From contig PXUB01000034.1 of the NCBI GenBank assembly GCA_003009755.1, forward strand, positions 1 through 47,530: a DNA stretch of 47,530 nt. The letters run 5' to 3'. Shown in pieces: positions 1 to 32,835 of the stretch (positions within the stretch are counted from its first letter, which is position 1; the number at the start of each line of letters is the position of its first letter). The notes beneath the pieces were generated by a model. It was not told the origin of the DNA. It did not search any database and saw nothing but the letters and a program-made list of their open reading frames with translations. Origin of the DNA: Thermoplasmatales archaeon SW_10_69_26 (lineage in GTDB: Archaea; Thermoplasmatota; SW-10-69-26). A program made the position numbers and the translations under genes.

Positions 1-264
1 GAGGTCGACGGCGACGACGCTTGCGGGAGCGGCGAGGGCGTTCCCGTCGGCGTCGGCCTGCTGAGGGCGGCCCTTCGGGCGGCGGCCTGAGCGGCCAATC
101 TCATCGTCGGCCTGCATCGAAAACCCGCAGGGGGTTTCCTGCTTCGGCCTCCTTGACCTTGACGCGCTCATTCGCACGAGCCCTCCGGGCTCGTACTTTC
201 GGGAGACCGTGCCCGGTCTCCCGAGACCGGCGCGAGAGCTCAAGCAAAACACGTCCGGCAGTCT
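1..264. repeat. Partial copy (left end outside the window) of the structured intergenic element at 13687-14194
   Basis: 1-24 matches 13776-13799 (23/24). 172-265 aligns with 14104-14195, sharing two hairpins and the terminal ccggcagtcta. Confidence 0.8.
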
Positions 265-10773: not shown

Positions 10774-10887
10774 GCCCCAGGCGGATCCGAACAACAGCAC
10801 GCCTCGGGCTCCGGGCACGTCTCGACGCGGACACCATCCTCCACGACGCACTCGCAATCCGCACATCCCGTGCGCACGTGAGATCAC

Positions 10888-11160
10888 CTATCCGCGGTAG
10901 AGGACGACGGTGTTGCCACGCACCTCGATCAGGTGCGCCTCCGTGCGCTCGGCGAGGTCCTCCCCGGCCTCCTCGGTGCCGGTCTCGGCTGCCGCCGATC
11001 GCAGCACCCGGACCTTGACGAGGTCGTCGCTGGCCAGCTGGCGGTCGACCTCCTCGACGAAGCCCTCCGAGAGGCCGGCTTTGCCGACCTGCAGCTCGGC
11101 CGACAGCTGCTGAGCTTCGCCGCGAAGCTCCTGGACCCGGTCCGTGGGCAGCTCGTCCAT
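10888..11160 (-). CDS. yhbY: YhbY family (CRM domain) RNA-binding protein
   Basis: LRGEAQQL..LQVGKAGLSEGFVEEV..L...DLVKVRVL ... IEVRGNTVVLYR. Confidence 0.92.
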   Translation of the reverse strand: MDELPTDRVQELRGEAQQLSAELQVGKAGLSEGFVEEVDRQLASDDLVKVRVLRSAAAETGTEEAGEDLAERTEAHLIEVRGNTVVLYRG

Positions 11161-11263
11161 CACGCCTCGCCAGCAGCCGCTCCCATGTGAACGTTCCCCC
11201 CTCGGCCCCGGTCACCACCGCTTGCGGACAACGCTGAAACCCTCGCCGACGACCGTCGTCGAC

Positions 11264-13167
11264 GTGCGCCGGCTGCTGCTTTTGGCTCTGTGCCTGACGC
11301 CGACCGCCAGCGGCCTCACCGTGGACCTGGCCGCCCCGAACGCGGCCCCGATCGAGTCGACGCCCTTCGCCGTCGACGTCGCGATCGAGGACGCCGGCGA
11401 ACCCGTCGAGATCAAGGCCTGGCTCGGCTCCGAGGATGCCCAAGCCTCCCGGACCTGGAACGGCACCAGCTTCCAGCGATCGGACTTCTACGCCCGCACC
11501 GTCGACCCCGAGGCCGGCAGCTGGCAGGGCCGGCTGTGGCTGCAAGCCAACCCCGACTCCAGCAACGCGGACGCGCTGGCGGCCGACGAGCTGACCGTCG
11601 GCGTGCGAGCCCGGACGAGCACCGACACCGCCGATGCCCTCGCCGACGTCCCCGGCCCCTGGCCGTGCCCGACCCCGAGCCCAGCCTCGACGTCTGCGGC
11701 CCCGAAGGGTGCTCGCCCGGCCTCGGCTGGAACCTGTCCCGTGCCAGCGAGACCGACGTCGAGCTCACCCAGCGACCGTCGAGCGATCGCGGCGGCGTGA
11801 TCGTGGCTGGCGACCGCGTCTGCCTGCTCCCACCGAGCCCCGAGGAGGGTCCCTGGCGGCTCGCGGTGGACCAGCTGGCCTCAACCGGTGCCTGCCGGCC
11901 CGCCGACCCCGGGTCCGCCGTGGCCGAGCTGTTCCACCTGGGGGAGGCGCTCGACAGGGCGCCCGAACGCCCGGGCCGGGGGGAGGTCGTCCGCGACCCC
12001 GTTGCGGGAGGATGGGCCCCATGGCGCCTGCCTCCCGGTGTGGACGCGCAGCCGGTCACGGCTCGGCGCGTCGAGGGCCACGTGAGCGTGTTCGGTACCC
12101 GGGAAGCCGGCTTGGTCACGCTCGCGGACGTGCTGGCCGAAGCCCAGCACCGCGTCACCGCGTCCACCTACCTGTTGACGAGCCCGGCCGTCGGGGACCT
12201 GCTCGCCCAGACGGCCCAGCGCGGCGTCGACGTGCACCTGTACCTCGAACCCGACCCGGTCGGCGGCCAACCCGCGGCCACGCCCCGCCTGATCGACCGT
12301 CTGGAACGGGCCGGCGTCCACGTGCACGAGGCCGAGGGGCCGACCGACGGGGGCCTCCAGCACGCCAAGATCGTCGTCGTCGACTCCGGGCTGGCGCTCG
12401 TCCTCACCGAGAACATGACCGAGCACGGCCTCCCCCGCGATGGCGAGGGCAACCGCGGCGTCGGGATCGGGCTCGCCAACGCTAGCCTGGCGGCCCGCCT
12501 GGAGGCGATCTTCCGTTCGCCGGGCGAAGGCCGGGAGATCCGACCCGACGGTTGGCGAGCGATCCAGGCGCCGGTCGCCGTCGTCACCGCGCCCGAGAAC
12601 GCCTGGCGGGCCTCCGGCGTGCCGGCCTGGATCGAGGACGCCGAGGGGTCGCTCGTGGGCGCGGTCCTGCGGGCCAACCCGCGCTGGGGACCGCGCTCGA
12701 ACGCCTGGCTGGACGCGATGGTCGACCACAGCCGCGGATCGTCGGTCGAGGTGACGCTCAGCGGCGTCCCCGAGGGCGCCGCCCGGTCGAACCGGGAGGC
12801 GATCGCCTACCTGGAAGCTCACCCGGACGCCAGCGACCTCGACGCTCGACTGTCCGATCCCCGCCAGGGGACCCTGCACGCGAAAGCGATCGCTACGCCC
12901 TCGGCCGCGCTCGTGGGATCGACGAACTGGGGGCTGGGCGGGGTGTTGCTCAACCGCGAGGTCAACCTGCTCGTCCACGACGGTCGCGTCGCCGAGGAGG
13001 TCCGCGAGGTCCTGCAGGGCCCCGAGCCCGGCGCCGGCCTCGGACCGGTCGGGCCCGCGCGGGAGGCGGTGCCCGCGCCCGGGATCCTCGGGGCCGCCCT
13101 CGCGGCGATCGTCGGCCTCAGCTGCCGCTTGACGCGATCGGGACCAGGCCGTGGACGTCGAAGGTGA
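11264..13167 (+). pseudogene. Secreted phospholipase D-like domain protein, split by a 1-bp frameshift near 11650
   Basis: Signal peptide and N-domain lie in the frame of 11144..11800. The PLD part (HAKIVVVD..TEN; HAKAIA..GSTNW..NREV) lies in the frame of 11290..13167. The frames join at a C-run gacgtccccggccc. Could be a sequencing error. Confidence 0.75.
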
Positions 13168-13633
13168 CGGTGCCGTTGCCGCGGGCGTCCATGCCGACCT
13201 GCCACTCGCCGGCCGTCGGGGTCGGGAAATCGAACCCGGCCTCGGCCGGTTGCGAGCGGGTGAGGTTGCGCTCCTCGCCGTCGGCGGTCACGACGTAGGT
13301 GCGGACCTCGCCCTCGGGGCTGTCCTCCGGCACCACGCCGCCGGGGTCGGGGTTGGAGAACTCGATCGAGAACGTGACCGTCACCTGGCGGGTGTCCGGC
13401 GGCACGCGGAAGCTCTGGTTCCACTGGGAGGCGACGTCGGACTCGTCCTCGACGGTGCGGTTCGGGTCCGCGACCCCGGCCGGCGTGAACGGGACGCGTT
13501 CGAGCAACAGCGTGCGGTCCTCGAACTCGTCCTGGGCCTCCAGGTCGTTGCGGAGCTGGTCGACGACGCTGCCGTCCAGGCAGCCGGTCAGGGCCGAGGC
13601 CAGAACCATCACGGCGACGAGCCGGACCCGCAT
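13118..13633 (-). CDS. Hypothetical lipoprotein (beta-sandwich)
   Basis: Lipobox ALTGC and acidic composition. TATA-like tttttta about 26 bp upstream of the ATG. Confidence 0.8.
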   Translation of the reverse strand: MRVRLVAVMVLASALTGCLDGSVVDQLRNDLEAQDEFEDRTLLLERVPFTPAGVADPNRTVEDESDVASQWNQSFRVPPDTRQVTVTFSIEFSNPDPGGVVPEDSPEGEVRTYVVTADGEERNLTRSQPAEAGFDFPTPTAGEWQVGMDARGNGTVTFDVHGLVPIASSGS

Positions 13634-13686
13634 ATAGCATTGAATGGCCAGCTCATCCTAAAAAAGGCCGTCGGAGAGGACGAGCG

Positions 13687-14194
13687 AGACTGCCGGCGAT
13701 GCTTGGGTTCGGCTCTCGCCGCCCTCAGGCGGTGAAAGCGCGGAGCCGAGACGACGGAAGGCCCACAGGCCTTTCGAGGTCGACGGCGACAACGCTTGCA
13801 ACAGGCGCACTTGTGGACCTTGCGTCGTCACCGGCCTGCGGGCGGCCTCGCCGTGAGGGGGGTCACGGAGACCGCTCTCCCTCGATTTGGTGAACATTTC
13901 CTGGCCAACCGCTCGTAGGGGGAGACCGTGGGACCGGAAATGTTCTGGTGCGCCGGTCTAAGGTGGGCCATCTTGCTGTACGAATCGGAGATGCGCAGCC
14001 GAGATCGGTCCGGACGGCGGACCGATGCTCGGCCGTTGTCGGCCCCCGTGAGATCTCACGAGAGGGTTGCCGTCCTCGGGCTCGGCGACCGTGCCACGCT
14101 CCCTCGCACGAGCCTTCCGGGCTCGTAGGTTCGGGAGACCGTACCTGGTCTCCCGAGACCCGCGAGAGCCTAAGCAAAACAAGACCGGCAGTCT
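13687..14194. mobile_element. MITE-like or structured-RNA repeat element with terminal inverted repeats
   Basis: agactgccgg (13687-13696) and ccggcagtct (14185-14194) form a perfect inverted repeat, extended by ggctctcgc/gcgagagcc. Many internal hairpins, no credible ORF, second copy at 1-264. Confidence 0.6.
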
Positions 14195-15992
14195 AGGAGA
14201 CGAGCTCGGGGTCGTAGTAGTACTCGCCCTCGCGCTTTTGCTCCTTGTCCTTCCGGGAGCCGGGCTTGTTGATGCGCGGGCGCTTGGTGTCGCGGTCCCG
14301 GCGGAAGGTGACGTCGACGTTCGCGAGGAACCGGTTCATGCCATCGCGCATGTCCATGGGGCCATGCGAGGTCCCCTCGACGCCGGGCTCGCCCTCGAAG
14401 ACCATCAGGCTGTCGGCGATCAGGTCGATGAGGTAGACGTCGTGGTCGACGACGAGCGCGCTCGTCGACCGCTGCTCCATGACCCGGCGCAGGGCCTTGG
14501 CGACGAGCATGCGCTGGTTGACGTCGAGGAAGGCGCTGGGCTCGTCGAGCAGGTACAGGTCGGCGTCCCGGCCCAGGCACAGGGCGCACGCGACGCGCTG
14601 CAGTTCGCCGCCGGAGAGGTCGTTGACGTCGGTGCTCAGCAGGTCGTCCAGCCCGAGCGGGCGGCCGACCTCGTGCTGGAAGAACGGGTCGTCCCAGGCG
14701 TCGGCCATCGTCGAGTAGAACATCGACTCGACGGTGCCGTCGAACTCCGCCTTCAGGTACTGCGGCTTGTAGCTGACCTGCACGTCGAGGTCCAGCGTGC
14801 CCTCGGTGGGGTCCTCGCCGCCGGCGAGCAGCTTGACGAGCGTCGTCTTCCCGATCCCGTTCGGACCGAGCACGCCGACGACCTCGCCCTCGTGCAGGGT
14901 CCCGCCGTCGGTGTGGAACCGGAACCCGTCGTCACCGTACTGCTTGGCGATCTCGCCGTAGGTGACGAGCTCGCCGCGCTCGAACCGCTTCCGCGGCGGG
15001 TGCGCGGTGAACTCGATCTCCTCCTCGCGGATTCGCACGTTCTCCTCCGGCAGGAACCCGTCGAGGTAGGCGTTGATCGACCCGCGCGTGCTGCGAGGCA
15101 GGCCCATGATGCCGTAGGCGGCCTGCTCGCCGTACAGGACGTGCACGACGTCGCTGACCAGGTCGAGGATCGCCAGGTCGTGCTCGACGACGAGCACCCG
15201 GCGGTCGGCCTCGTCCACGAGCTCGCGGATGAGACGCGCCGTCGTCGTGCGCTGCTCGACGTCGAGGTAGCTGGACGGCTCGTCGAACATGTACACGTCG
15301 GCGTCCTTGAGCGCGGTCGCGGCGATCGCGACGCGCTGCAGCTCGCCGCCGCTGAGGTTGCCCAGCTCGCTGTCCAGCGTGTGCTGGATCTGAAGCTGGT
15401 CGACCAGCTCGTCGAGCTTGCCCCGCTCGTCGACGCTGGCCAGCAGATCGCTGACGTTGCCGTCGACGACCTTCGGCATCTGGTCGACGTACTGCGGCTT
15501 CGTGGCGACCTCGATCTCGCCCTCGGCCACCTGAGCCAGGTAGTCGTGCAGCTCGGTGCCCGCGTACTCGTCCAGCACGTCCTCCCAGGAGGCCTCGGAG
15601 GCCCACTCCCCCAGGTTCGGGGTGCTTCGACCGTTGAGGAAGGACAGCGCGGTCGACTTGCCGATGCCGTTGGGGCCCAGCAGGCCGACGACCTGGCCCT
15701 GCTTGGGGACGGGCAGTCGGAACAGGCGGAAGGCGTTCTCGTCGTACTGGTGGACGAGATCCTCCTCAAGCTCGTCGGGCAGGTTGATGATGTCGATCGC
15801 GTCGAACGGGCACTTGTTGACGCAGATCCCGCACCCGATGCACAGCTCCTCGCTGATCACGGGCTGGTCGCCCGGTTCGTCGTGGTAGATCGTCTCCGGG
15901 ACGCCGGCCCGCACCTTGGGACAGTAGTTGATGCACTCGTAGTTGCACTTCTTCGGTTGGCATTTGTCCCGGTCGAGGACGGCGACGCGCAC
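14193..15992 (-). CDS. rli: Ribosome recycling ABC ATPase ABCE1/RLI
   Basis: N-terminal Fe-S domain (CQPKKCNYECINYCP, CIGCGICVNKCP). Two NBDs (GPNGIGKS/T, LSGGELQR, DEPS) and the TFRRD..RPRINK hinge. Confidence 0.98.
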   Translation of the reverse strand: MRVAVLDRDKCQPKKCNYECINYCPKVRAGVPETIYHDEPGDQPVISEELCIGCGICVNKCPFDAIDIINLPDELEEDLVHQYDENAFRLFRLPVPKQGQVVGLLGPNGIGKSTALSFLNGRSTPNLGEWASEASWEDVLDEYAGTELHDYLAQVAEGEIEVATKPQYVDQMPKVVDGNVSDLLASVDERGKLDELVDQLQIQHTLDSELGNLSGGELQRVAIAATALKDADVYMFDEPSSYLDVEQRTTTARLIRELVDEADRRVLVVEHDLAILDLVSDVVHVLYGEQAAYGIMGLPRSTRGSINAYLDGFLPEENVRIREEEIEFTAHPPRKRFERGELVTYGEIAKQYGDDGFRFHTDGGTLHEGEVVGVLGPNGIGKTTLVKLLAGGEDPTEGTLDLDVQVSYKPQYLKAEFDGTVESMFYSTMADAWDDPFFQHEVGRPLGLDDLLSTDVNDLSGGELQRVACALCLGRDADLYLLDEPSAFLDVNQRMLVAKALRRVMEQRSTSALVVDHDVYLIDLIADSLMVFEGEPGVEGTSHGPMDMRDGMNRFLANVDVTFRRDRDTKRPRINKPGSRKDKEQKREGEYYYDPELVS

Positions 15993-25899: not shown

Positions 25900-27711
25900 C
25901 TACTTGGAGACCGTGATCGTGGTCCCGTCGCTGTCCCCGTCGGGGTCGTGGTTGTCCGAGGAGCTGTACGTCAGGTCGGCGTGGCTGACGTCCGTCACCG
26001 TGAAGTCGACCGGGCTCTCGCGGTTCCGGAAGCTCTCGGACACCGAGCACCACCCGTCGCTGGCGGTCGTGCACGAGGCCGTGCCGGTGGCACCCTTGTC
26101 GGTGGTGTAGTCGAAGGTGACGGTCGCGTCGCTGACAGCCGTGTGGTTGCTGTCGTGGATCAGGACGTCGACGACCGCGGTCCAGGAGCCGCCCTGGCCC
26201 CCGGAGCTGGCGTCGTCGAGGTCACCGACGTGCATCCCGCTGGCGCCGCTGTCGCTGCTGGAGACGCTGACGGTCTGCGTCTGGCTGTCGGTGGCGCCGT
26301 CGTCGTCGGTCACAGTCAGCGTGACGTCGTAGTCGCCGCCGCTGTCGTACGTGTGCGAGGTCGTCTCGCCCGTCCCCGTCGTGCCGTCGCCGAACTCCCA
26401 GTCGTAGCTGGTGATGTTGCCGTCGTCGTCCGACGAGCTGGACCCGTCGAAGTCGCACGTCAGGTCGGTGCACGTGTACGTGAAGTCGGCCGTCGGGCCG
26501 CTGTTCGAGCCGCCGCCTCCACCGCCACCGACGAGCGCGCCGGTGTTCAGCCGGCCGTCACCTTGGCGCTCGGCGATCAGGCCGAGATCGTCGGCGCTGG
26601 AGCCGAGCTCGGACTCCATCGTGGAGTGGCTGACGTCGCCGTTGGCGTCGATGTAGAGCCCGACCGCGCCGGCCACGTGCGGGGTGCTCATCGACGTGCC
26701 GGAGAGCTCGTGGTAGCCGGACGTCGTGCCGCCGTCGACGCTGAGGACGTTGTTCCCCGGACCGATGATGTCGGCCTCGGGGCCCTGGCTGCTGAACGAG
26801 CAGAAGTCGTCGTTGCTGTCCGAGCACGTGACGATGACGACCTTGGCCGGTCGCGAGGCCCACGGATCGGAGACGCAGTTGGTGCACGAGCCGTCGTTGC
26901 CGGCGGCGGCGACGTGGATGACGCCCTTGTCGTTGGCGTAGTCGATCGCGTCGAGCAGCGCCTGGTCGTCGCCGCCCCAGGAGTTGCTGGAGATGTGGGC
27001 ACCCTTGTCACCCAGGTCGGCCAACGCATCCGCGATACTGTTCGTGCCGGCGGAGCCGCAGCCGAAGAACCCGCTGTCGAAGATCTTGTGCATGATGATG
27101 CTGGACTCGCTCATGCCGGCGATCCCGACACCGTTGTTCGTCGTCGCAGCGGCGGTCCCGGCCGTGTGCGAGCCGTGGTAGTCGCACCCGCTGTGATCCT
27201 CGGGCGTGCCGTCGCTGTGGTAGTAGTCGTACCCGCTGACGCGGCTGTTAACGAAGTCCTCGTGGTCGACCGTGATCCCGCTGTCCAGCAGGCCCAGCTG
27301 GACGCTGGTGGATCCGAACGTGGTGTCCCAGGCGGACTCGGTGTTCGTGATCTGGGGGCCGTACTGGTTGCTGTACTGCCCGTCGTCCGGGGTCGCAGCG
27401 AGCTCGTAGTCGTACCGGTTCTCGTGCATGTAGCGCACGTCGTCGTCCGTCTTGACCTTGATCTCGAACGTCGAGGGGTTGTCCGGCGCGACGACGAAGA
27501 ACGTCAGCCGTTCGCTGACGTCGATGACCGGTTCACCCTGGTAGGTCTCCCGGTCCTCGGGGAGCTGATCGTGGAAGCCGACGACGTACTCCTTGTCGTC
27601 GTCGGCGTCCGTCTCCATCGGTGTCGCGTCCGTTGCCCCGACAGCCGCCATCGGCAGTCCGACGGCAAACATCGACAAAGCTACCGCTATGACAAGTGGC
27701 TTGTTTCGCAT
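25900..27711 (-). CDS. Secreted S8 subtilase with PKD and C-terminal beta-sandwich domain
   Basis: Triad LLDSG / YHGSHTAG / [12 protein letters not shown] and oxyanion AAAGN. PKD motif [16 protein letters not shown]. Confidence 0.95.
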   Translation of the reverse strand: MRNKPLVIAVALSMFAVGLPMAAVGATDATPMETDADDDKEYVVGFHDQLPEDRETYQGEPVIDVSERLTFFVVAPDNPSTFEIKVKTDDDVRYMHENRYDYELAATPDDGQYSNQYGPQITNTESAWDTTFGSTSVQLGLLDSGITVDHEDFVNSRVSGYDYYHSDGTPEDHSGCDYHGSHTAGTAAATTNNGVGIAGMSESSIIMHKIFDSGFFGCGSAGTNSIADALADLGDKGAHISSNSWGGDDQALLDAIDYANDKGVIHVAAAGNDGSCTNCVSDPWASRPAKVVIVTCSDSNDDFCSFSSQGPEADIIGPGNNVLSVDGGTTSGYHELSGTSMSTPHVAGAVGLYIDANGDVSHSTMESELGSSADDLGLIAERQGDGRLNTGALVGGGGGGGSNSGPTADFTYTCTDLTCDFDGSSSSDDDGNITSYDWEFGDGTTGTGETTSHTYDSGGDYDVTLTVTDDDGATDSQTQTVSVSSSDSGASGMHVGDLDDASSGGQGGSWTAVVDVLIHDSNHTAVSDATVTFDYTTDKGATGTASCTTASDGWCSVSESFRNRESPVDFTVTDVSHADLTYSSSDNHDPDGDSDGTTITVSK

Positions 27712-27973: not shown

Positions 27974-29935
27974 CTATTCGCCCACGACCTCCACGTTGTC
28001 GACGTACCAGCCGGGGTAGTCGTTGTAGGCGTCGTCGATCGAGTCGAAGTAGTAGCGCAGCTGCAGGTCGCTGCTCGCCGAGCCGGAGATGTCGAAGCTG
28101 ACCTCGGTGTAGTCGCCGTTCGTGTGGTCACGGGAGTCCCACTGGGCGATCGTGCTCCAGCTCGAGCCGCCGTCGCTGCTGACCTGGACGCGCATCGTGT
28201 CGTACTCGGCGTCGTAGTTCTCCACCTCGAAGAAGTGGGCGAACTGCAACGTCACCGTCGAGTACCCGCTGGCGTCGATCGTCGGCGACTGAGCCCAGCC
28301 CTCGGCGGTGCCGGCGTCGTAATCGCAGTCGGGCGAGGCTCGGCTGAAGGCGAGCTGGTACTCGGGCGAGAACGGGCTCACGCAGTCCGAGGAGACCCGC
28401 CACAGGTCGTTGCTCATGCTGGACTTCGTCCAGCCGTCGGCCGAGCCGTCGTCGAAGTCCTCGGAGTAGACGGTGGTCGACCCGCTCGAGGACGAGACCG
28501 TCACGTCCTGGCTCGCCGAGTCCGTGGCGCCGTCGTCGTCGGTGACGGTGAGCGTCACGGTGTAGGTCCCGTCGCTATCGTAGGTGTGCGAGGTGGTCTC
28601 GCCCGTGCCCGCCGTGCCGTCGCCGAACTCCCAGTCGTAGCTGGCGATCGACCCGTCGTCGTCCGACGAGCTGGACCCGTCGAAGGTGCAATCGAGGTCG
28701 GTGCAGCTCGAGGTGAAGTCGGCCGTCGGCGGGCTGTTCGAGCCGCCGCTGGATCCGACGAGCACGCCGGTGTTCAGCCGACCGTCGCCCTGGCGGTTGG
28801 CGGACAGGCCGACGTCGTCGGCGCTCGTGGCCAGCTCGTCCTCCATGGTGGCGTGCGTGACGTCGCCGTTGGCGTCGATGTAGAGACCGACGGCGCCGCT
28901 GACGTGCGGGGTGCTCATCGAGGTGCCCGACTTCTCGGTGTAGCTGCTCGTCGAGCCACCGTCGACGCTGAGCACGTTGTTCCCCGGCCCCGCCAGATCG
29001 ACCTCGGGGCCCTGGCTGGAGAACGAGCAGAAGCCGTCGTTCTCGTCCGTGCAGGACACGATCACCGTCTTCGCCGGCCGCGAGGCCCACGGATCGCTCA
29101 CGCAGTCGGTGCAGGACCCGTCGTTGCCGGCCGCGGCGACGTGGATGACGCCCTTGTCGTTGGCGTAGTCGATCGCGTCGAGCAGCGCCTGATCGCTGCC
29201 GCCGCCCCACGAGTTGCTGGAGATGTGGGCACCCTTGTCGCCCAGGTCCTTGAGCGCCTGCGCGATGTCGCTGGTGCCGGCGGATCCGCAGCCGAAGTAC
29301 CCGCTGTCGAAGATCTTGTGCATGATGATGCTGGACTCGCTCATGCCGGCGATCCCGACACCGTTGTCCGTCGTGGCGGCCGCGGTCCCCGCCACGTGGC
29401 TCCCGTGGTAGCCGCAGGAGCTGGTGTCCTCGGGCGTGCCGTCGCTGTGGTAGTAGTCGTACCCGCTGACGCGATCGGCGGCGAAGTCCTCGTGGCCGTC
29501 CGCGATCCCGCTGTCGAGCACGCCCAGCTTCACAGCCGTGCTGCCGAGCGTGGTGTCCCAGGCGGACTCCGTGTTCGAGATCTGGGGACCGTACTGGTTG
29601 CTGTACTGCCCGTCGTCCGGGGTGTAGTGCAGCTCGTAGTCCCGGTGGTTCTCGTGCATGTAGCGTACGTCGTCGTCGGTCTTCACCTTCACCTCGAAGG
29701 TCGCCGGGTTGTCCGGGGCGACGACGAAGTACTCGAGATCGGCGTCGTGGAAGACGACCTCCTCGCCTTGGTACTCGTCGGTGTCCCGCGGCATCTGGTA
29801 GAACCCGACGACGTACTCATCGTCGTCGTCCTGGCCAGGCGTCAGGATGGGAACGTCGGCCGCTCCCGCCGCCGCCGTCGGCAGCCCGACGGCGAGCATC
29901 GACATGGCAATAGCTATCGCAAGCTGTTGGCGCAT
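27974..29935 (-). CDS. Secreted S8 subtilase with PKD and C-terminal jelly-roll (MAM/immune-inhibitor-A-like) domain
   Basis: Triad VLDSG / YHGSHVAG / [12 protein letters not shown] and a PKD domain. Tail [32 protein letters not shown] at 29935. Confidence 0.95.
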
Positions 29936-32547: not shown

Positions 32548-32835
32548 CGGCCGGGACCCGGCTGTCTGGTTAAGCAGGGGCCGCGAAGGACACGAAGGAT
32601 CGCCAAGGCCACGAAGGGCCTGTGTACTCGCCGCCGGGCGGCGTTGTCACGGCAGCTGCTCGCCTTTGTGCCCTGGCGTCCCCTCGCGCACTTGGTGGTC
32701 CCCCCGTTTCTTATCGTTACAGCGCGGGCCGGGACCCGAGGAACGTTTATGCACACCTTGGGCCATCGACCCTAGGAGGCGCGAGGCTCGTCGCGGACGG
32801 CGAGGCTCGTCCACCCGTGCCTGGGAGGGCCCCAC

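Follow-up and report, generated by a model that had tools for sequence, protein, structure and literature searches.

The 508-base repeat at positions 13687-14194 raises the question of whether it is the gene of a structured RNA or a piece of mobile DNA. It is discrete, with pairing termini and many internal hairpins, and it lies in the 47,530-nucleotide stretch analysed here (the window), which is the entire contig C34 of a 2.82-Mb assembly in 49 contigs (G+C 69–70%, 95% complete). The initial annotation of the locus, made from the letters alone, considered both a strand-specific transcribed RNA family and a non-autonomous element. Our analysis indicates that the repeat is very probably a non-autonomous, gene-less MITE of the IS630/Tc1-mariner type, and that the family is new as a family and in this lineage, while the kind of mobile DNA is well known. 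The second reading of the initial annotation is supported by inverted-repeat ends, TA duplication within CTAG, an allele of the site that lacks the element, and an IS630 element sharing the outer termini. The sequences themselves show the ends and their TA flanks, a preference for CTAG, the placement of copies between genes, the single empty allele and the termini of the IS630 element. The features of the locus are as follows.

13688..14193, + strand: the MITE proper, GACTGCCGG ... CCGGCAGTC, in L1-to-R1 orientation on the + strand
13686..13687, no strand: left copy of the target duplication, degenerate (GA for TA); the left side reads CGAG and the right side CTAG
14194..14195, no strand: right TA copy of the target duplication; this CTAG is made up of C14193 (the last base of the element), TA and G14196 (flank)
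13688..13720, + strand: left terminal inverted repeat, L1 type, presumed transposase binding site; 40 such ends in the genome
14160..14193, - strand: right terminal inverted repeat, R1 type; 35 such ends in the genome
13756..13775, no strand: variable hairpin module GGAAGGCC-CACA-GGCCTTTC; the subfamilies have different stems here, related by compensatory changes
14108..14156, no strand: two terminal hairpins of the right half, absent as a block from several copies
1..263, + strand: second copy, right part only, with the R1 end at 231-263 and TA at 264-265; cut by the contig start
14193..15992, - strand: ABCE1 gene, with the domains Fer4_RLI, Fer4 and two ABC_tran
13118..13633, - strand: probable lipoprotein gene, a neighbour outside the element; the product starts with a lipobox-like LTGC and is without Pfam match

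The span 13687-14194 exceeds the MITE proper by a single base at each end, which belongs to the flanking TA. Most of what had been read from the letters around it holds: the termini pair, with AGACTGCCGG at the start and CCGGCAGTCT at the end, and the adjoining ~25 nt pair as well; the partial copy at 1-264 is real and truncated by the contig start; and the junction reads ctag here and ctaa at that other copy. The two copies have in common their last ~135 nt and a short stretch near the start of the truncated one. The right end does overlap the stop codon of ABCE1, an identity that the domains confirm, and this TAG (14193-14195, minus strand) consists of the duplicated TA and the terminal base of the element. 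On the other side, an A-run (13659-13665) precedes the probable lipoprotein gene, whose minus-strand ATG at 13633 is 26-32 nt away, and is a plausible TATA box of a leaderless transcript. It had been put forward as the divergent lipoprotein promoter; the run and the lipobox-like product are present in the sequence, and the promoter role is what we infer from them.

The + strand of the repeat folds as a closed multibranch structure with a chain of hairpins, including those listed in the initial annotation, and its minimum free energy (MFE) of -279.6 kcal/mol compares with -231.5 +/- 6.7 kcal/mol for 100 dinucleotide shuffles (z -7.23). The reverse complement reaches -267.7 kcal/mol with z -7.59 against its own shuffles, and the advantage of 12 kcal/mol on the + strand is equalled by the shuffles of that strand. 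The same symmetry is found in the family. In the 22 complete copies that remain of the 25 when the 1343-nt copy and two copies with N are set aside, G-U pairs make up 190 of 2744 pairs in the MFE folds of the L-to-R strand and 177 of 2741 in those of the other strand, and the summed MFE is -4137 and -4175 kcal/mol, respectively. An RNA selected on one strand should give an excess of G.T mismatches; when G-U pairs were forbidden in folding, the 1x1 helix mismatches were G.T in 15 cases and A.C in 23 (8 and 7 distinct contexts, respectively). The direction of the element relative to the abutting gene is the same in 11 cases and opposite in 14.

The + strand G-U bias proposed earlier started from two stem differences between this repeat and the copy at 1-264. 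Both are C-to-T changes private to the 13687-14194 copy: metagenome contigs have C at 14126, 14130 and 14146, the tabulated closing pair (alignment columns 90/95) is G-U in only 2 of 20 aligned right ends, and some other copies have at a neighbouring stem position an A.C that would be G.U on the opposite strand only. A comparison of the whole window with Rfam 15 at the gathering score matched tRNA alone and left the element without a match, and between 13600 and 14260 five matches at chance level were obtained at E up to 10, the best of them a 37-nt hairpin at E 0.096, so that no known RNA family was recovered. Of the 16 sequencing runs listed for this stretch, none is an RNA run that contains it. 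A strand-specific RNA reading of the repeat is not supported, and neither is the selection on a strand-specific single-stranded structure that had been deduced from it, as the reverse fold, the G-U and mismatch counts and the orientations are all symmetric.

BLAST of the element against its own genome gave 120 pieces, on most contigs. By searching for places where the 10-nt terminus leads into one of four ~35-nt end types, we found 98 ends with the ~35-nt inverted repeat in the 2.8-Mb genome (L1 40, R1 35, L2 10 and R2 13). They form 25 inward-facing complete pairs of 99-1343 nt, which have no conserved ORF; the two longest contain foreign inserts, and apart from the insert-bearing ones the copies measure 99-574 nt. 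Altogether the family occupies 86 regions and 18.6 kb, which is 0.66% of the genome. The terminal inverted repeats are imperfect (the L1 and R1 consensus sequences are identical at 29 of 36 positions), and one chimeric copy pairs an L1 with an R2 end. The end pattern TAGACTGCCGG-N14-22-TCTCGC has 66 matches in this genome and the reversed control pattern none; the same end pattern has no match in 20 relatives. A tRNA gene lies within 400 nt of a family end in 1 of 57 cases. Moreover, 24 of the 98 contig ends are located within 120 nt of a family region, and therefore the repeat broke the assembly there; for annotators of Thermoplasmatota genomes assembled from halite metagenomes, the family explains a quarter of the contig breaks. 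End-like sequences with AGAC.GCCGG, ~18 nt and TCTCG, and with other inner sequences, were also seen on contigs C1 (65333), C2 (44048), C3 (70879), C5 (9851) and C32 (8128-8208), and their form suggests that they could be more, older subfamilies of the same superfamily.

TA flanks 93 of the 98 family ends, and 82 ends lie in CTAG; the base outside the TA is C at 82 ends, T at 10 and A at 6, and the usual junction is C-TA-GACTGCC...GGCAGTC-TA-G. When the 25 MITEs are taken together with the IS element described below, TA is present on both sides in 23 of 26 elements and identical 4-mers on both sides in 8 of 26, while the 11 elements that deviate from C..G at the outer base include none with matching 4-mers. 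From the TA on both sides and the absence of matching 4-mers in these 11 it follows that the duplication is 2 bp (TA), with CTAG preferred. Elements of the IS630/Tc1-mariner group insert at TA and duplicate it, and their transposase binds the inverted repeats via two HTH motifs, as described in the part of PMC2170065 that deals with them. That the repeat might instead be a MITE of an IS family duplicating the 4 bp CTAG, for example of the IS5, IS1182 or IS1380 types, is hardly credible: CTAG on both sides of most copies would fit such a duplication by itself, as would the identical 4-mers, but the 11 informative elements all fail to match whereas TA is kept, the ..GAG and CTAG of the filled allele correspond to a single TTAG in the empty-site contig, and the sole genomic element with these termini encodes an IS630-family transposase.

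This empty site was found by comparing contigs of four halite-metagenome runs over 13300-14600. One 234-nt contig of low depth (5.2), from one of the four runs (X2), joins 13684 to 14194 via a single T, with 55 nt beyond the joint on its shorter side and 4 differing letters in 178 nt of flank. It skips 509 nt (13685-14193), in agreement with the MITE boundaries within 3 nt, and reads ...ACGAG-T-TA-GGAGACG..., with a single TA and no element. Therefore, a close relative carries the locus without the element, and the comparison of empty sites proposed in the initial annotation has yielded a presence/absence polymorphism, as expected of mobile DNA. In the filled allele the right side is TA and the left side a degenerate GA, preceded by a base that likewise differs from the empty contig; the duplication at this locus is consistent with the model but not intact. 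The stop codon of ABCE1 (minus strand) is TAA in the empty allele and TAG in the filled one, where the G is the terminal base of the element. Since filled and empty alleles exist in nature, the family could be used to tell strains apart in halite communities.

A transposase gene bounded by the same termini, which the initial annotation had suggested looking for, is present on contig C32. The element at 89546-90675 is 1130 bp long, has AGACTGCCGG at both ends, is flanked by CTAG and CTAA, and sits with its left end on the TAG stop of the upstream gene. Its orfA (175 aa) matches HTH_33, HTH_32, HTH_29 and HTH_23, and its orfB (254 aa) matches DDE_3; in the NCBIfam IS630 model the two match positions 9-133 and 136-292, respectively, and, as each is only half of a protein, neither quite reaches the cut-off set for the whole one. 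The orfB is in the -1 frame, and the overlap GAG CTG AAA AAA ACC TAG contains an A7 run, where a -1 shift would connect the two frames. IS630-family elements that use frameshifting or slippage are known, according to the relevant part of PMC5009743. In this genome the element is the sole copy by BLAST and tblastn and the sole DDE_3 match. The earlier remark that the window has no transposase therefore stands for the IS630 type, which is the type that the scan covered. In its DDE half the protein shares no more than 36% identity with plasmid-borne proteins annotated as IS630 family transposase, and among 40 relatives it has matches in only 3, at 31-35% identity.

The outer 10 nt of the C32 element are identical to those of the L1, R1 and L2 ends. 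In a comparison of the first 36 nt of the ends with 1000 shuffles, the similarity beyond position 10 is 20 of 26 to R2 (reached by 0 of 1000 shuffles) and 18 of 26 to L2 (4 of 1000), and it is weak for L1 (17 of 26; 46 of 1000) and R1 (15 of 26; 473 of 1000); the two ends of the C32 element itself are identical at 28 of 37 positions. Judging by these ends, the L2/R2 subfamily appears clearly tied to the C32 element, and the L1/R1 subfamily seems weakly tied to it, by the outer 10 nt, a weak inner similarity, shared interior modules and the one L1/R2 chimera. The cognate transposase of the L1/R1 copies, including that at 13687-14194, may be another than the C32 copy. It had been stated in advance that termini matching a known IS would make the repeat an ordinary MITE, and an IS630-family element does share the outer 10 nt, with a weak inner match for the L1/R1 type. 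A derivation of the interior from the C32 element was rejected, as BLAST found the terminal 10-12 nt and short chance words only; without interior similarity, the MITE did not arise from that IS by simple deletion. Likewise, the 1343-nt copy (contig C36) was rejected as an autonomous parent, since the ORF in its insert is IS6-family-like and not of the IS630 type. This copy (10815-12157) is split by an insert of ~770 bp, one mobile element inside another, and the 238-aa ORF of the insert matches the IS6-family transposase model NF033587 with E 9.7e-24, below the cut-off. A further copy of 670 nt, on contig C14 (16714-17383), has a middle part of ~330 nt that does not form hairpins and is unlike the other copies.

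An alignment of ten copies revealed one long architecture, which is best preserved in a 571-nt copy on contig C37 and from which the other copies lack blocks. Several deletion edges have a few bases in common, for example CTGGT or GCTC, and from the alignment the copies look like internal deletions of a long master. The 13687-14194 copy is without ~62 nt that the C37 copy and metagenome contigs have, and the 99-nt class consists of the two ends with ~30 nt between them (two copies are paired, and two more are indicated by BLAST pieces and by the ends recorded). Interior modules are common to subfamilies with different ends and also occur in 23 regions outside the detected ends, some of them beside decayed end-like sequences. 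The hairpin at 13756-13775 has at least three stem versions, with changes on both sides in 4 of its 10 pairs. In 28 of the 32 fetched left ends, whose relatedness inflates the test, 42 both-side cells were counted against 15.8 +/- 5.5 in 500 shuffles, none of which reached this value, and slid controls gave at most 13. The compensatory changes are linked into about three haplotypes, so the compensatory events were few. One position of this hairpin is G.U in 26 of the 28 copies. In the right half (14108-14156) there are two local hairpins with one compensatory position; the long-range pairs obtained by folding the right half alone were discarded as artificial, and only these two hairpins are meaningful. 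The hairpin potential is kept on both strands alike and does not single out RNA. Its retention is consistent with the replacement or correction of DNA palindromes as whole units, or with weak selection for the forming of hairpins.

With a crude GC3-based gene caller (1968 calls covering 78% of the genome), all 25 complete copies lie outside called genes, and 11 of the 24 copies having genes on both sides lie between convergent ones. The junction TA falls within the TAG stop of the abutting gene at 17 of 50 flanks, that is in 14 of 25 copies, and on both sides in 3 copies. CTAG occurs 999 times in the genome, against 7963 sites expected from base composition and 2858 from trinucleotides; of the 999, the TA belongs to a called stop codon at 186, and 79 are junctions of an element. 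The called stop codons are TGA in 1304 cases, TAG in 518 and TAA in 138. Avoidance of CTAG together with CTAG methylation has been described in haloarchaea, in the part of PMC7002104 devoted to it. The placement of the copies behind genes is explained by the CTAG target preference and purifying selection and requires no function, and the MITE reading accounts in this way for the long structured spacers directly behind TAG stop codons.

Considering the ends, the target site and the C32 element together, we assume the following course of events. The ~35-nt imperfect inverted ends would be bound by an IS630-family DDE transposase provided in trans, either from the C32 copy or from a lost or unassembled relative, which would cut the element out and paste it into a TA, preferably that of CTAG, with duplication of the TA. 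As CTAG is rare and many of the remaining sites are TAG stops, copies would accumulate directly behind genes, and as the element starts with G, the stop codon would be rebuilt as TAG. The hairpin-rich interior would be passenger DNA, and the size classes from 99 to 574 nt would have arisen mainly by internal deletions of a long master.

Against the MITE reading stand the weak inner similarity of the L1/R1 ends to the C32 element, the degenerate left TA, the single low-depth contig behind the empty site, the crude gene calls behind the position counts, and the covarying stems in one hairpin module, which plain passenger DNA does not predict. If the copies were genes for a family of strand-specific structured ncRNAs, with the closed multibranch fold as the functional form, the strong folding of the + strand, the compensatory changes in that hairpin and the G.U kept at one of its positions would be accounted for; but the opposite strand folds equally well, G-U pairs, summed energies and mismatches are balanced between the strands, the elements point either way relative to the abutting 3' end, Rfam holds nothing above chance level at the locus, and copies lose whole modules down to 99 nt while keeping their ends only. 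We therefore consider an ncRNA family very improbable, which removes a candidate novel RNA and gives one class of hairpin repeats in this genome a concrete mechanism instead. Slightly better, though still improbable, is the case for a MITE with co-opted hairpins, in which stable stem-loops at the ends of read-through transcripts would affect how the upstream mRNA is processed or how stable it is, a role proposed for Correia elements, or in which the hairpins would have their effect in the DNA itself. Bacterial MITE transcripts with long stem-loops influence adjacent mRNAs, as set out in the pertinent part of PMC2229807, more than half of the complete copies here stand directly behind a stop codon, and covariation keeps at least one hairpin. 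Against this, there is neither an orientation bias nor a strand bias, the CTAG target alone explains the position behind stop codons, the hairpin modules are freely lost, and the compensatory changes amount to about three linked haplotypes and thus to few events.

A more far-reaching idea, which we hold to be improbable but less so than the preceding ones, is that the hairpins are not mere passengers. The formation of DNA hairpins or cruciforms could itself be selected, because the stems covary without strand bias and the modules are common to subfamilies with different ends; if true, the selection could act, for example, on transposition efficiency or on survival of the excised element. Under the same idea the superfamily could seed the spacer hairpin cassettes of the lineage, and the G...C termini may be adapted to land on and rebuild TAG stops in a CTAG-depleted genome.

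Among known systems, the closest analogue of this MITE family is RUP with IS630-Spn1 in Streptococcus pneumoniae. As described in the section of PMC2229807 on it, RUP is likewise a non-coding multi-copy repeat whose inverted ends resemble those of an IS630-family element of the same genome, with insertion at TA, intergenic location and a proposed mobilisation in trans; it is 107 bp long and A+T-rich, with a 9-bp terminal inverted repeat (PMC2229807). Unlike RUP, the archaeal family has 70% G+C, ends of ~35 nt, lengths from 99 to 574 nt, a modular interior with multiple hairpins and at least four end subtypes. With IS630 of Shigella sonnei and ISY100 of Synechocystis it has in common the TA duplication and, reportedly, the preference for the TA in CTAG, which for IS630 is stated in the title of the work of Tenzen and Ohtsubo of 1991, listed among the references of PMC2170065; the C32 transposase has in common with theirs the N-terminal HTH motifs and the C-terminal DDE domain. 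Unlike these elements, the MITE has no gene, and the resident C32 element, whose DDE half is so distant from the plasmid-borne IS630 transposases found, would need a -1 shift at its A7 run. IS630 and ISY100 are known for cut-and-paste transposition without a hairpin intermediate, according to the part of PMC2170065 that treats their mechanism.

The Correia/NEMIS elements of Neisseria are also TA-flanked foldback MITEs, and their transcripts form long stem-loops; they are 107-155 bp long, and in the review's section on them no transposase is linked to them (PMC2229807). Studies have addressed how they act at the RNA level via RNase III, whereas the present family is known here from sequence alone. 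REP/BIME/REPIN and the IS200/IS605-derived PATEs are similar in being G+C-rich extragenic hairpins in mosaic arrays behind genes, but they are without terminal inverted repeats or target duplication and depend on a Y1 (HUH) transposase, whereas the MITE family has both features. A search for Y1_Tnp (PF01797) had no match in the 95%-complete assembly; with terminal inverted repeats and TA flanks present and no Y1 transposase found in the assembly, an identity with REP/RAYT or PATEs was rejected. The Sulfolobus MITE SM1 with ISC1048 was dropped as an IS630 parallel, as ISC1048 is filed under IS607 in the part of PMC3718332 that lists it.

A search of 40 relatives, many with incomplete genomes, found no copy of the MITE family; 5 of these relatives belong to the same taxonomic family, 15 to the same class and 20 to the same phylum. 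The exact L1-end pattern had only 2 matches among one genome each of 185,579 species, in an Isosphaeraceae genome and a Treponema MAG, and both were taken as chance; the L1 and R1 end patterns had no match each in a metagenome contig collection. The element itself was found in the halite metagenomes of two studies, where contig depths summed at the left end exceed those of the flanks by two orders of magnitude, a figure that is not a copy number. The family is a lineage-restricted expansion with only one candidate autonomous partner.

Two other repeats were observed in the window. The stretches 26261-27269 and 28494-29499, each of ~1 kb, are 82-86% identical and 2.2 kb apart, and are probably a tandem gene duplication. 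At about 32558-32715 (minus strand) there is a second, unrelated repeat of ~155 nt with about 40 genomic sites, which is very well conserved and gap-free and ends in CCCTGCTTAAC[CG]AGACAGCC[CG]G. It folds as one long imperfect hairpin with a z of only -2.05 and has no Rfam match at E up to 1. Many of its copies are followed on the same strand by a called gene, which begins 47-64 nt past the conserved end; the interval contains an A/T-rich box.
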